From positions 1 to 41,301 of the forward strand of contig DBNY01000020.1 of NCBI GenBank assembly GCA_002299475.1: DNA of 41,301 nt. The letters are read 5' to 3'. Numbering within the stretch: the stretch's first letter is position 1; the number at the start of each line of letters is the position of its first letter. Both the position numbers and the translations under genes were made by a program. Positions 29,677 to 34,330 of the stretch are shown in pieces. The DNA is from Bacillales bacterium UBA660. GTDB lineage: Bacteria > Bacillota_I > Bacilli_A > RF39 > UBA660. The notes under the pieces are model-generated. The model was not told where the DNA came from, made no database searches, and saw only the letters and a program-made list of their open reading frames with translations.

Positions 29677-29756
29677 TGACAATTAATATTAGATTAATTT
29701 AGCACTATACCTCAAATGATATAATTCAATTACATTAAAGACGAGGAAGTATTCTA

Positions 29757-30377
29757 ATGATAAAACAAATATTCATGCAAAAAGCAATGGCTTTAATAAA
29801 ACAACACTATTCTGATTATGAGAATATCAAATTAGAAAAGATATATTATGGTTTAGAGGGCGCTTATCTTACCATATCTAAACTATTAATTATTCTTGTA
29901 TTAGCTTATTTTTTAAATATACTTGAAGAGACATTACTGTTATTATTTTTTTTTAATATCATCAGATTGCCAGCATTTGGAATGCACGCTTCTAAGAGTT
30001 GGATTTGTCTCGTTATTTCTTCCCTTTGGTTTTTAGGCGTTCCATTATTATTAAGCTATATTGAGTTGTCTAATAGTTCGCAAATAATAATATGTCTGCT
30101 TTGTACAATAATATTTTATTTATATGCCCCTGCTGATACCGAGAAAAGACCACTAATAAATATAATTAAAAGACGAAATCTTAAAATTATATCCGTCTCA
30201 ATAACTATAGTCCTTTCTATATTGGCTATTAATATAGATAACATATATATATCTAATATGATTATAGCAGCCATTATAATTGAAAGTATTATGATTATGC
30301 CAATAACATATAAATTGTTTAACCAAGAATATAACAATTATAGAAAATATGTTCTAAAGCCGATATCAATTAATTAA
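29757..30377 (+). CDS. agrB: AgrB-type accessory gene regulator B (AgrD-processing membrane peptidase)
   Basis: 206 aa, polytopic. YYGLEGAYLTISK...RLPAFGMHASKSWIC places His and Cys 7 residues apart, like the catalytic H77/C84 of S. aureus AgrB. Confidence 0.85.
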   Translation: MIKQIFMQKAMALIKQHYSDYENIKLEKIYYGLEGAYLTISKLLIILVLAYFLNILEETLLLLFFFNIIRLPAFGMHASKSWICLVISSLWFLGVPLLLSYIELSNSSQIIICLLCTIIFYLYAPADTEKRPLINIIKRRNLKIISVSITIVLSILAINIDNIYISNMIIAAIIIESIMIMPITYKLFNQEYNNYRKYVLKPISIN

Positions 30378-30433
30378 ATATGGCTATAAATATGTATATA
30401 TATTTAAGCAATTTTGAGCAAGGAGGTGCGATT

Positions 30434-30556
30434 ATGAAAAAAATATGTGCTTTTGCATTATTGAGTATTGGATTATTGGCAGCAAATGCTGCCTCAACTG
30501 CTAGTGCTTGGTTACTTCTTGATGAGCCTGAGATGCCAAAAAGTTTAATCAATTAA
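30434..30556 (+). CDS. agrD: AgrD-type autoinducing-peptide precursor (40 aa; below the ORF-track size cutoff)
   Basis: AGGAGGTG (30421-30428), 5 nt, then ATG. The translation is MKKICAFALLSIGLLAANAASTASAWLLLDEPEMPKSLIN. It has a hydrophobic leader, a short core and the acidic AgrD recognition tail DEPEMPKSL. It starts 56 nt after agrB. Confidence 0.8.
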   Translation: MKKICAFALLSIGLLAANAASTASAWLLLDEPEMPKSLIN

Positions 30557-30578: not shown

Positions 30579-30597
30579 AAACCCTATAAAAGGGTTT
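30579..30597. repeat. Left copy of the 19-bp target-site duplication
   Basis: AAACCCTATAAAAGGGTTT is identical to 32294-32312. It is itself a hairpin (AAACCCT/AGGGTTT). Confidence 0.85.
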
Positions 30598-32293
30598 CAG
30601 ACTGTTGACAAATAGATTAATATTTCAATCTATTTGTTCAATAGCCTTTTTTATTGATTGATTTATTAAACAAACGCGTGTTGATATTTATTTTTGATGT
30701 ATATCATACAGTTACAGGAGGGTGTAATGCAAATTTCTTCAAATTCATACATGCATAAAGGAGGGTGAGTTCTTGACTAACCCTTTCTTTAGTTCTAAAG
30801 TATGTCTTTCTAAGACCATACTTTTCTTTTCCGTCTGCATATATTCTTTCAATATGCTCAGGTCTCTGCCTGTATATTTTTTGAACATCTAAATGGTGTC
30901 TATAATCATTTGCCATATCCTTATATTCCTCCCAAATGTGTCTTAATACCTGTTTATATTTTGATTTTGTACATTTATTTTTAAATGTACATTTTCGACA
31001 ATCTTTTTCACAAGCTTTATAGATTATATATCCATTTTTGTTTATACCAGTTGGTATTAAATCCTTTTCATTAGGGCAAATATAAATATCGTTCTTTTCA
31101 TCATAAACAAATTCGTATTTCTTAAAATATCCTTTTTTGGTCATTGATCTTTTGTACGGGAATGTTGGCTTCATATTCAAATCTATTAAAGTTTTACATA
31201 TATGAGGGGTTACATAGGCTGCATCTCCTACAAAATATTTAATATTATTTATATCATACTTATTTAATAATTTATCAAACGAAGAATAGAATGCCATTGA
31301 ATCATGCATATTTGAAGGATTAACGTCAACCGTTAATATGTAATTATTGTTATCACATATTACTGAACTATTATACCCAAACATTTTTTCTTTCTCATTT
31401 TTATAAAGCATCCCAGCATCCGAATCAACATCACTTACTATTACTTCTTTTTCGCCCAATAATTCTTCAGTTGGTATTTCTTCATTACAGTTTATAATTT
31501 TTTGTATTTCTTCTAAATATTCTTCGTCACTTAAATCTTCATCCTTCAATCCTTTTAAAGCTATTTCTAATGATAAATCTTTTTGATATTTCTTCGCCTG
31601 TATTTTTACTATTTCCTTGTGATTCTTTTTCCTGTTGGCATATGCTTTAGTATTTGTTGAATCTATATATACGGCCGTCAAATCTAAATAATTATATTCT
31701 TCTAACAAGGCAATTACTTTATCAAATACTTTTTGTAGTATATCGTTCTCTAAGCGACTAAATTTTCTTTTATAATTTTGTGAATATGTTGAATGATCTG
31801 GCATTTCTTCGTTTAATTCATACCCTATAAACCACCTGTACAAATTGTTATATTTTAAAGTCTCATATGTTTTTCTTAAACTGTCTTCATTAAAAAGGAA
31901 CTTTAATATATGAATTTTAAATAGTACAACGGGATCTATACTTGGTCTTCCAAATACAGAGTATTGTTTTTCTACTTCTTCATATATAAAGTCCCAATCA
32001 AAATATTTATTTATTACTCTTAAAAAATGATTTTGAGGTATTATTTCGTCAAGATTTATTATTTCACTTTGATATATTGTTTTTGGTTTTTTGGTCATCA
32101 TATTTATCACTTGCCTTTCTTATATAACCCATATATATTATACCATTTTTTCCCTTATTTTTCAACGGATTACATAAAAAAATGTAAGAACTGCAAGCTT
32201 TAATTTTGGATTATATAAAGCGTTCTTACAATTTAATTATACATTATATCTTTAAAAAAGAAAAGACTATTGACTTACTTTGTCAACAGTCTG
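30598..32293 (-). mobile_element. IS1182-family-like insertion sequence, 1,696 bp
   Basis: Perfect 15-bp terminal inverted repeats: CAGACTGTTGACAAA (30598-30612) and TTTGTCAACAGTCTG (32279-32293). It is flanked by a 19-bp direct repeat and has a single transposase ORF. A subterminal 10-bp hairpin CAAATAGATT/AATCTATTTG lies at 30609-30636. Because the target is palindromic, the exact IR/TSD boundary could shift by up to 6 bp. Confidence 0.85.
30704..32110 (-). CDS. DDE transposase (IS1182/IS5 superfamily)
   Basis: 468 aa with an N-terminal DUF772-type region (FGRPSIDPVVLFKIHILKFLF...SLRKTYETLKYNNLYRWFIG). The C-terminal region has ERIYADGKEKYGLRKTYFRTKERV...ACMNLKKFA. The length fits IS1182 better than IS5. 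Confidence 0.8.
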   Translation of the reverse strand: MINMMTKKPKTIYQSEIINLDEIIPQNHFLRVINKYFDWDFIYEEVEKQYSVFGRPSIDPVVLFKIHILKFLFNEDSLRKTYETLKYNNLYRWFIGYELNEEMPDHSTYSQNYKRKFSRLENDILQKVFDKVIALLEEYNYLDLTAVYIDSTNTKAYANRKKNHKEIVKIQAKKYQKDLSLEIALKGLKDEDLSDEEYLEEIQKIINCNEEIPTEELLGEKEVIVSDVDSDAGMLYKNEKEKMFGYNSSVICDNNNYILTVDVNPSNMHDSMAFYSSFDKLLNKYDINNIKYFVGDAAYVTPHICKTLIDLNMKPTFPYKRSMTKKGYFKKYEFVYDEKNDIYICPNEKDLIPTGINKNGYIIYKACEKDCRKCTFKNKCTKSKYKQVLRHIWEEYKDMANDYRHHLDVQKIYRQRPEHIERIYADGKEKYGLRKTYFRTKERVSQELTLLYACMNLKKFALHPPVTV

Positions 32294-32312
32294 AAACCCT
32301 ATAAAAGGGTTT
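32294..32312. repeat. Right copy of the 19-bp target-site duplication
   Basis: AAACCCTATAAAAGGGTTT. It contains the TAG stop (32299-32301) and the last five codons (K-K-T-L-L) of the agrC-like gene. Confidence 0.85.
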
Positions 32313-33627
32313 TTTTATCGTTTACTTTTATTTCTAAATATTGGATATACAAACCATTAGTAATTTCCCTACTTTGAAAAAACTTTGGGTTTTTCTTGAT
32401 AATTGATTTTACTAAAGATAGCCCATAACCTCTTCCAACACCCTTAGTTGAATAACCACTTTTATCAAATTTATCAACCTTTAATTTGCCAACAAAAGTA
32501 TTGGCTATCGCTATCTTTATATTGTTGTTTTCAAAATAAAATTCAATCCCTATTTGCTTCTTTTGGCAAAGTTGTACCGCCTCTATAGCATTATCTAAAT
32601 AAACACCTAAAACAGTACATAAATCTCTATAATCATTAATATTTATTTTAAGAAATTCTTCTTTCTTCAACTCTTTACTAATATCTAATGATAAATTTAT
32701 ATTCTCATTTCTCATTTGGGCGATTTTATAGTATATAAGTCCTTGTAATCCTCCCTTTGGAATTTTGTTTATTTTAATTAACCACAAATCCTCTAGCACA
32801 GTCGCATTTGATAATATGCCTTGTATATATTCTAATGCCCTCTTATTGCTCTTTGCTATCAAGCTTTTTATTACTATTAACTGATTTTTATTTTCATGAT
32901 TTTTAATTATTTCTCTTTCCATCCAGTCCTCAAAAGTCTTCACGTAATTAACCAATTGTTCATATTTGCATGTTAATTCCTGACTTTTAATATATTCAAA
33001 CATAAATATAAAAAAAATCACTATAAGAGCTACAATTAGTAAAATATTTATAAACAAGCTATTATTTAAGTGAAAATTACTACCCACTTTAGAAAATAAT
33101 ATTCCAAGAATAATAATTTCCATCAAAACGAACAATATGGTTATAGTTTTTCTTTGATTATTAACTATTCTTAATAATTTTACCAATACTTGTCTAATTT
33201 TGCTTATTTGCAAAAGATAAAACGCAATACCACACACTAATGTATTTATTAATGAATAAACTACTGTGCCTCCATCTCTAATATGATTAATATCAAAATT
33301 AAAAACAAATATAATAATCAAAATTAAGATAATCTCAGCAAGTGACTTTAAAATTATTACAATAAATGATAAAACTACTGCTTTTTCAATTGGTATTTTA
33401 AATACATAACCATAACTATAACTGATGATTATAAAAATTATTAAGGTTGTTGTAAAATCATATTGTATTTGGCTGAATAGTGTAATTAATAATGCTGTAA
33501 ATAAAATTATTATTAAATTTTCATTATATAAATTAACTTTTTTATGTGACAATTTAGAAACGATTAAAATCCCTACAATAGTTGTTAATAGACCCCCGAA
33601 TAAAAACTTATTAACAAATTCTAACAT
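32299..33627 (-). CDS. agrC: AgrC-like (HPK10 family) membrane histidine kinase
   Basis: 442 aa with ~6-7 N-terminal TM helices and a candidate H-box IIKNHENKNQL. It also has an N-box YLDNAIEA and a G-box GVGRGYGLSLVKSI. It overlaps the upstream response-regulator gene by 17 nt. Confidence 0.8.
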   Translation of the reverse strand: MLEFVNKFLFGGLLTTIVGILIVSKLSHKKVNLYNENLIIILFTALLITLFSQIQYDFTTTLIIFIIISYSYGYVFKIPIEKAVVLSFIVIILKSLAEIILILIIIFVFNFDINHIRDGGTVVYSLINTLVCGIAFYLLQISKIRQVLVKLLRIVNNQRKTITILFVLMEIIILGILFSKVGSNFHLNNSLFINILLIVALIVIFFIFMFEYIKSQELTCKYEQLVNYVKTFEDWMEREIIKNHENKNQLIVIKSLIAKSNKRALEYIQGILSNATVLEDLWLIKINKIPKGGLQGLIYYKIAQMRNENINLSLDISKELKKEEFLKININDYRDLCTVLGVYLDNAIEAVQLCQKKQIGIEFYFENNNIKIAIANTFVGKLKVDKFDKSGYSTKGVGRGYGLSLVKSIIKKNPKFFQSREITNGLYIQYLEIKVNDKKTLL

Positions 33628-34330
33628 GTTCCTTTAGTCCTTTCTTTTTCCCCCTAGCTAATAAATATAAATGCTCATTATTATTAAAAGTAATTTTCCC
33701 GTCCTTAAAATCGATTTTTTTAATGTAGTCTTTATTTACTATACAACTTCTATGACTTTGAAAAAATCTACTATCTAACTTTTCCATTATACTTGATATA
33801 TTATCACAAACACTATACTCCGCATATATGGTCCTAATAACTGATTTTCGTTCAATAGTATCCTTAATTATATAAATTATATCGTCATATTTTATTTTAT
33901 ATAAAATACTGCCATTTTCAAAAATTAAAGACTTCTTATGTTCTAATATTTTAATAGCTATTTCTAAAGAACTCTTTAATCGTTCTTCAAAATTAATATA
34001 CTTTGAAATAAAATCTAATAGCATTAATCTGCTCTTTATCGCCTCTAATCCCAACTCATAATGAGCGGTCACAATAATTATAATGCTATTCCAATCTTTT
34101 TCCCTTATTTTTCGAGCGATGTCAAGACCTGATCTAGATGACAATTCAATATCTAATATGTAAATTTTTTTTATGTTTGTCTGTTCTATTATTTTTTTTA
34201 CTTTATTATTATAATCATCAAACTCATGAATAATATAATCAAGATCTTGAGGCATCATTGTCTTTGTTATTAAATTCGTTATGTTCTCTTTTATGTTTTT
34301 ATCATCTTCACATACCACAAAATTAAACAT
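33611..34330 (-). CDS. agrA: LytTR-family response regulator (AgrA-like)
   Basis: Receiver domain (FVVCEDD...ILDIELSSRSGLDIARKIRE) plus a LytTR DNA-binding domain (FFQSHRSCIVNKDYIKKID). I prefer the start ATG 34330 (MFNFVVCEDD). The track start at 34342 is a TTG abutting GGGG. Confidence 0.85.
   Translation of the reverse strand: MFNFVVCEDDKNIKENITNLITKTMMPQDLDYIIHEFDDYNNKVKKIIEQTNIKKIYILDIELSSRSGLDIARKIREKDWNSIIIIVTAHYELGLEAIKSRLMLLDFISKYINFEERLKSSLEIAIKILEHKKSLIFENGSILYKIKYDDIIYIIKDTIERKSVIRTIYAEYSVCDNISSIMEKLDSRFFQSHRSCIVNKDYIKKIDFKDGKITFNNNEHLYLLARGKKKGLKEHVRIC

Follow-up and report, generated by a model that had tools for sequence, protein, structure and literature searches.

The locus studied here raises the question of whether an AgrD precursor with no cysteine in its core is a working signal gene and, if so, through which residue and over how many residues the ring of its autoinducing peptide (AIP) would be closed. 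The gene lies in a window of 41,301 nucleotides (the whole stretch of DNA that was analyzed), which comes from an uncultured MAG of 59 contigs and 0.89 Mb with a completeness of about 97%.

The agrD gene and the agr locus

Translation of 30434..30556 (+), 40 codons and a stop codon read directly from the sequence, yielded the peptide MKKICAFALLSIGLLAANAASTASAWLLLDEPEMPKSLIN. Comparison of this 40-amino-acid ORF with the NCBIfam model TIGR04223 (quorum_AgrD, "AgrD family cyclic lactone autoinducer peptide") gave a score of 29.1 bits (E = 8.1e-07; cut-off 19). No other match in the genome exceeded this cut-off, and none of the control genomes scanned with the same model produced one that did. 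A profile built from the AgrDs of the family itself also matched the peptide (E = 3.6e-17). The Pfam model of staphylococcal AgrD (PF05931) scored 12.7 bits, under its gathering threshold of 22.7, and was dropped as a basis for membership.

The peptide consists of a signal-peptide-like leader (residues 1–23, MKKICAFALLSIGLLAANAASTA; 30434..30502 (+)) that ends in S-T-A, a predicted core SAWLLL (residues 24–29; 30503..30520 (+)) that begins with the AGT codon of Ser24 (30503..30505 (+)), and the follower DEPEMPKSLIN (residues 30–40; 30521..30553 (+)), the segment recognized by AgrB, in which D30, E31, P32 and P35 show little or no variation across the family alignment. In keeping with membership of the AgrD group, which asks for a Cys or a Ser at a fixed distance before an acidic, Pro-containing follower, Ser24 stands at that distance from DEPE, and the sole Cys of the peptide is residue 5, within the leader. 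agrD begins 56 nt past the stop codon of agrB on the same strand, and a Shine-Dalgarno sequence (AAGGAGGTG; 30420..30428 (+)), likewise read from the sequence, is located 5 nt before its ATG; the AAGGAGG of this element is also present in the locus of a genome of the same genus, hereafter G002. The public gene call is longer (58 amino acids, from an upstream ATG at 30380) and appears as an unnamed entry in the protein collection. Because of the Shine-Dalgarno sequence, and because the orthologue of the same genus has a frame of exactly 40 amino acids, we take 30434 as the true start.

Collectively, 30434..30556 is a real AgrD gene. The original prediction had based its AgrD assignment on the hallmarks of the peptide, the adjacent agrB, a strong Shine-Dalgarno sequence with a start 56 nt after agrB and a single Cys at leader residue 5, and each of these features was found again here, together with the TIGR04223 match. 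It had also described the gene as unannotated, which holds only in part, as the 58-amino-acid version had already been called, without a name, from the upstream ATG.

Upstream of agrD, agrB (29757..30377 (+); PF04647, E = 1.2e-32, 113 bits) encodes a membrane peptidase/cyclase for follower removal and ring closure. Its product of 206 amino acids is the only AgrB in the genome and retains an H-x6-C motif (GMHASKSWIC), with the His/Cys spacing required of an agr-type system, that is also conserved in the AgrB of the same genus and that we take to be the catalytic pair by comparison with His77 and Cys84 of S. aureus AgrB. On the opposite strand, an agrC-like gene (32299..33627 (-); PF14501, E = 1e-13) encodes a polytopic GHKL sensor histidine kinase of 442 amino acids, and an agrA-like gene (33611..34330 (-)) encodes a LytTR response regulator (PF00072, E = 3.4e-10, and PF04397, E = 1.7e-15), which together provide the HPK10-type polytopic GHKL kinase and the LytTR regulator expected of an agr-type system. 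The AgrC model NF046015 aligned with the kinase over its full length with a score under its cut-off; the AgrC and AgrA equivalog models alike gave full-length matches far under their species-level cut-offs. Since the regulator gene overlaps the start of the kinase gene by 17 nt, both are assigned to one operon. agrBD and agrC/agrA are convergent, and all four genes are intact.

Identity to the proteins of G002 was 77% for the regulator, 70% for AgrD, 56% for AgrB and 49% for the kinase, and within the kinase the membrane sensor part was less similar (41%) than the cytoplasmic part (56%). Such a profile, in which the regulator is conserved and the parts that set specificity diverge, is typical of agr systems. 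In the region 5' of agrB, an extended -10 element (TG-n-TATAAT, 29717..29725) is identical in G002, and a pair of AATGGT repeats spaced by 21 bp (29602 and 29623) is only partly conserved there (AAAGGT and AATAGT). A promoter consensus scan produced 15 promoter-like sites against 11.7 expected, a result that is uninformative in DNA of about 27% G+C.

Ring nucleophile and ring size

The AgrD of G002 (MKKLYATALVALGLLAVNAASTACFWLLLDEPEMPESMIK) aligned without gaps to that of the window, with Cys24 (TGT) of the former opposite Ser24 (AGT) of the latter. The DNA around codon 24 was about 79% identical between both genomes, with many synonymous differences, which indicates that they represent separate, diverged species and that the difference is not an assembly slip. 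The codon that follows the nucleophile differed at all three bases (GCT in the window and TTC in G002).

In the family survey, 401 sampled genomes were searched with the family-AgrD profile, and the 156 distinct AgrDs recovered were aligned to it. The column of Ser24 was occupied by Cys in 146 sequences, by Ser in five and by Thr in five. Three of the latter had a Cys in the adjacent position on one side or the other, due to a register shift, and were rejected as Cys-less, so that seven of the 156 AgrDs, from six genera, lack a core Cys (five with Ser and two with Thr). Besides SAWLLL of the window (genome G000; AGT), with Cys in its same-genus relative G002, the Ser cores are SAVYFF in G239 (AGT), from a genus different from that of the window, SWIGWF in G314 and SWLGWF in G124 (both TCT), which belong to one genus, and SLVVIF in G080 (TCT), whose same-genus relative G279 has CIFFII. 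The two Thr cores, both encoded by ACT and with neither Cys nor Ser at the nucleophile column, are TYWWVF in G010 (follower DEPEMP) and TLMWIA in G331 (follower DEPECP); agrB, agrC and agrA are intact in both genomes. Our search of the literature yielded no description of a Thr-closed AIP, which makes these two members the more interesting targets.

The replacement residue was thus a hydroxyl amino acid in seven out of seven Cys-less AgrDs. Within this one column, Cys has changed to Ser at least four times and to Thr twice, and never to any other residue. Only two of the seven missense neighbours of TGT encode Ser, the probability of at least four independent Ser events by chance under neutrality is about 0.007, and a Thr codon is reached from TGT by a second step via Ser. 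In addition, G124 and G314, which are different species of a single genus, have both kept Ser across a speciation, and in all seven Ser or Thr loci a full-length AgrB with H-x6-C is accompanied by AgrC and AgrA, with the convergent arrangement unchanged. The hydroxyl-only replacement, the intact loci and the persistence of Ser across a speciation argue for a retained, working nucleophile, and against decay and sequencing error. On the alignment evidence, Ser24 is the homologue of the ring Cys and lies in its exact column, not in the place of an approximate substitute; the peptide is a candidate member of the Ser-lactone AIP subclass, which asks for a Ser in the ring-Cys column of close relatives, as seen here, and for a chemically demonstrated ester-linked macrocycle. 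The original prediction of a genuine AgrD with a Cys-less core and a lactone-type ring closed through Ser24 was supported in this respect, as the alignment with AgrDs of related taxa, which it had proposed as a check, placed Ser24 opposite Cys24 of G002 and in the column that holds Cys in 146 of the 156 family members.

In the profile alignment of the 156 AgrDs, the nucleophile stood six residues before the acidic follower in 149 sequences, seven in six and five in one. In the original prediction, counting five residues back from DEPE, as applies in staphylococci, led to an Ala; in this family a spacing of six residues is normal, not atypical. The best reading of the core is therefore a putative ring of six residues, SAWLLL, closed through Ser24, and we prefer it because the same layout in Clostridium acetobutylicum gives a six-membered, tail-free AIP confirmed by HRMS (Molloy et al., 2021, PMC8251862). 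In both peptides the nucleophile stands six residues before a [Y/D]EPxxP follower (SAWLLL/DEPEMP in the window and CVLVTL/YEPKMP in C. acetobutylicum), as in the R6T0-type AIPs of solventogenic clostridia.

With regard to the leader, position -1 relative to the nucleophile was A or G in 94% of the 156 family AgrDs, and position -3 was S, T or A in 95%. Small residues at these positions match the (-3, -1) rule of type I signal peptidase. Because [S/T]-x-[A/G] is conserved family-wide, the predicted leader cut lies immediately N-terminal to the nucleophile, in the window immediately before Ser24, and the product is probably tail-free. Two candidate leader proteases are encoded in the genome: a single clear signal peptidase I and a single MroQ-like CPBP/Rce1 protease. 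In S. aureus it is MroQ that removes the leader (PMC9388083).

Cleavage by AgrB after Leu28 would instead give a five-residue Ser-lactone, SAWLL, which together with a leader cut at ANA/AS and an ASTA tail makes a nonapeptide ([M+H]+ 901.478) that resembles the AIP of S. intermedius. This was the ring preferred in the original prediction, which had listed SAWLLL as its second option; the present data reverse that order. Five-residue rings are by far the commonest among characterized AIPs (PMC10301443), the few family members with a spacing of five or seven indicate that the distance is not rigid, and the cleavage site proposed for the leader is common to both species of the genus (ANA/AS and VNA/AS). 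That site, four residues upstream of the nucleophile, is however unconserved outside the genus, in contrast to the [S/T]-x-[A/G] that precedes the nucleophile in about 95% of the family. Together with the spacing of six residues in 149 out of 156 members and with a follower that aligns residue for residue with that of the six-membered, tail-free C. acetobutylicum precursor, this makes the five-residue ring improbable.

The insertion sequence and the state of the locus

An IS1182-family insertion sequence (30598..32293 (-)) with terminal inverted repeats separates agrD from agrC, and contains a transposase ORF at 30704..32110 (NF033551 transpos_IS1182, E = 1.4e-101). It is located 42 nt after agrD, inside the bidirectional terminator hairpin common to agrD and agrC (30579–32312), which was duplicated by the insertion. 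The left copy, AAACCCTATAAAAGGGTTT (19 bp, 30579..30597), was recognized as an inverted-repeat pair, the stop codon of the kinase gene falls within the right-hand copy, and the T-run is missing from both. Since the empty site in G002 has a single bidirectional hairpin, with the ends of agrD and agrC 33 nt apart, we conclude that the element landed in the common terminator without breaking ORFs. A terminator scan detected none after agrD. With the terminator split, no T-run and no terminator detected, expression of agrBD may be disturbed by the insertion. The element was also considered as a sign of decay and set aside in that role, as it is single-copy in the assembly and breaks no ORF.

agr-defective variants are common in staphylococci, and the change from Cys24 to Ser could be a loss of function that leaves AgrB with a precursor it cannot cyclize, the insertion being part of the same relaxed selection. 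The position of IS1182 in the common terminator, 42 nt after agrD, the presence of the AGT allele in one assembly only and the Cys of the nearest relative, which allows for a recent change, would fit with such a signal-dead locus. Yet the four genes are full-length and keep their catalytic motifs, and the insertion has duplicated the hairpin and left every ORF whole. Moreover, six further species, all with complete loci, show the exchange of Cys for Ser or Thr, and in one genus it has persisted in two species. No residue besides Ser and Thr ever takes the place of Cys, as would be expected if the nucleophile is retained but not under neutral decay. We therefore consider a decaying locus unlikely.

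A linear peptide, or a ring larger than SAWLLL closed through Ser21 or Thr22, is a far weaker candidate. Both residues are present, and GBAP of Enterococcus faecalis illustrates that AgrB-like enzymes are able to make larger Ser-lactone rings. It is nevertheless Ser24, not Ser21 or Thr22, that lies in the Cys column, and the upstream Ser/Thr belongs to the conserved [S/T]-x-[A/G], which is present in the Cys-type members too; we regard this reading as very improbable.

Least probable of all is a sequencing or assembly error by which a Cys codon, TGT, appears as AGT at 30503. The two codons are one base apart, and the allele is known from a single assembly, a MAG of 59 contigs. An error would, however, have had to strike precisely this base out of 0.89 Mb; natural Ser or Thr variants occur in seven of 156 AgrDs (AGT in another genus among them), and the neighbouring codon, different at all three positions (GCT against TTC), indicates a genuinely diverged core. 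When a second assembly of the species was sought in a collection of 5.8 billion proteins, only the 58-amino-acid call of the window itself was returned, and a degenerate DNA pattern for WLLLDEPEMP retrieved from metagenome contigs a single contig of a different species with a Cys core (CWWLFL).

Predicted product, family-wide distribution and known systems

For this locus it is established that the peptide belongs to the AgrD family, that Ser24 is homologous to the ring Cys, that the spacing is six residues and that all four genes are intact. On these grounds we consider it probable that a working agrD gives rise to a Ser24-closed six-residue SAWLLL ring that is sensed by the AgrC-like kinase. 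By homology with characterized agr systems, from which we infer cyclization, cleavage sites, rearrangement and signalling, the 40-amino-acid precursor would enter the membrane via its signal-peptide-like leader, and AgrB, with its catalytic His and Cys kept, would remove DEPEMPKSLIN and hold Leu29 as an acyl-enzyme. The hydroxyl of Ser24 would then attack the acyl bond of Leu29 to produce the SAWLLL lactone, and the leader would be removed, most likely right before Ser24 after S-T-A, by signal peptidase I or the CPBP/MroQ-like protease. The resulting tail-free product has a predicted [M+H]+ of 684.408. It would be sensed by the convergently encoded kinase, to which the LytTR regulator would respond.

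In such a product a free amine would lie beside the ester, so that the acyl group could migrate from O to N, which would yield the head-to-tail cyclopeptide cyclo(SAWLLL). Tail-free clostridial thiolactone AIPs undergo an S-to-N shift, the half-life of the thiolactone being 5.4 min, and the fate of a tail-free Ser lactone "remains to be clarified" (PMC8251862). Extended to the whole family, the nucleophile would be only a transient handle, and the thiolactone or lactone would rearrange by an S-to-N or O-to-N shift into a head-to-tail cyclic hexapeptide, here cyclo(SAWLLL). We put this forward tentatively, as a possibility that we find doubtful at present; if true, it would explain why Cys, Ser and Thr, and nothing else, have repeatedly been interchanged at one column, and it would answer the open question of Molloy et al. 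(2021) for Ser and Thr.

An AgrD gene was found in 252 of the 401 sampled family genomes (about 63%), in 148 of 214 genera, with genome sizes of about 0.8–1.5 Mb. Peptide quorum sensing would thus survive strong genome reduction in this group of genomes of about 1 Mb. Our literature search on RF39-type uncultured Bacilli and agr returned no paper linking both. Some genomes carry more than one AgrD-like ORF: G097 has a tandem pair about 470 nt apart (G097:C60:5440-6170), and G126 and G266 also carry multiple ones (two or three), which suggests duplicated signal genes. A class-level relative with a 2.4-Mb genome encodes a second AgrD (G050:C1:1970676-1970750) that ends in ...ANSTSLWFV/HQPKEPKEL, with Ser at the five-residue position; it is an independent Ser-type AgrD outside the family.

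For the window gene alone, little changes. With nucleophile and ring size assigned, the three outcomes considered at first are reduced to a single mass that can be tested, and the swaps between Cys, Ser and Thr in one AgrD column amount to a natural experiment on the chemistry that AgrB tolerates. Most of the interest attaches to this exchange across the family and to the fact that agr persists in genomes of about 1 Mb.

Both a Ser-closed ring and a six-membered ring are already documented among AIPs, and the NCBIfam model covers the window peptide. Ser-closed AIPs are rare but established (PMC8251862), and surveys of gut-microbiome RiPPs give the nucleophile for AgrB as "Cysteine or Serine" (PMC11953309). 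According to the accounts in the papers that cite it (cited in PMC8251862; PMC4774685), the AIP of S. intermedius/pseudintermedius is a rare Ser-lactone nonapeptide. As in the window, Ser occupies the ring position of an ordinary agr system in a genus whose other members use Cys; it differs from the window in a five-residue ring with a four-residue tail, a single agrBDCA operon and an amphipathic leader.

Verbeke et al. (2017, PMC5322536) used targeted LC-MS/MS on supernatants of Clostridium (Acetivibrio) thermocellum and detected a lactone pentapeptide that spans Ser25–Phe29. Its precursor, Clo1313_2818, resembles the window AgrD in the use of Ser for Cys and in a leader cut predicted right before that Ser and after an Ala, and belongs to the Ser-lactone subclass, with a tail-free lactone-type product that was detected there and is predicted for the window. 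Unlike the window AgrD, it has a five-residue ring and is an orphan gene without agrB, agrC or agrA, whereas the window has a full four-gene system.

The AgrD of C. acetobutylicum (CA_C0079, which contains GKCVLVTLYEPKMPEELL), with the core and follower CVLVTL/YEPKMPEEL (PMC10301443 supplement), shares with SAWLLL/DEPEMPKSL a nucleophile six residues before [Y/D]-E-P-x-M-P. As cited in PMC10301443, Steiner et al. (2012) assigned its autoinducer to R6T0, six-membered and tail-free. In both organisms agrBD and agrCA are separate transcription units, and for the window, too, a six-membered ring is predicted that is probably tail-free. The clostridial peptide has Cys where the window has Ser, and a long charged leader in contrast to the short Sec signal-peptide-like leader of the window, where the two units are moreover convergent, no LanM-like gene lies downstream and the host has a 0.89-Mb genome of an uncultured, Bacilli-type organism.

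The window peptide has the same length, leader and [S/T]-x-[A/G] motif as the AgrDs with a DEP(E/K)(M/C)P tail from gut MAGs of uncultured small-genome Bacilli/'Mollicutes'. It also has their six-residue core and follower, its genes are convergent as in these MAGs, and it differs from most of them in its nucleophile: 146 of the 156 members have Cys, the window peptide is one of the five with Ser, and two others have Thr.
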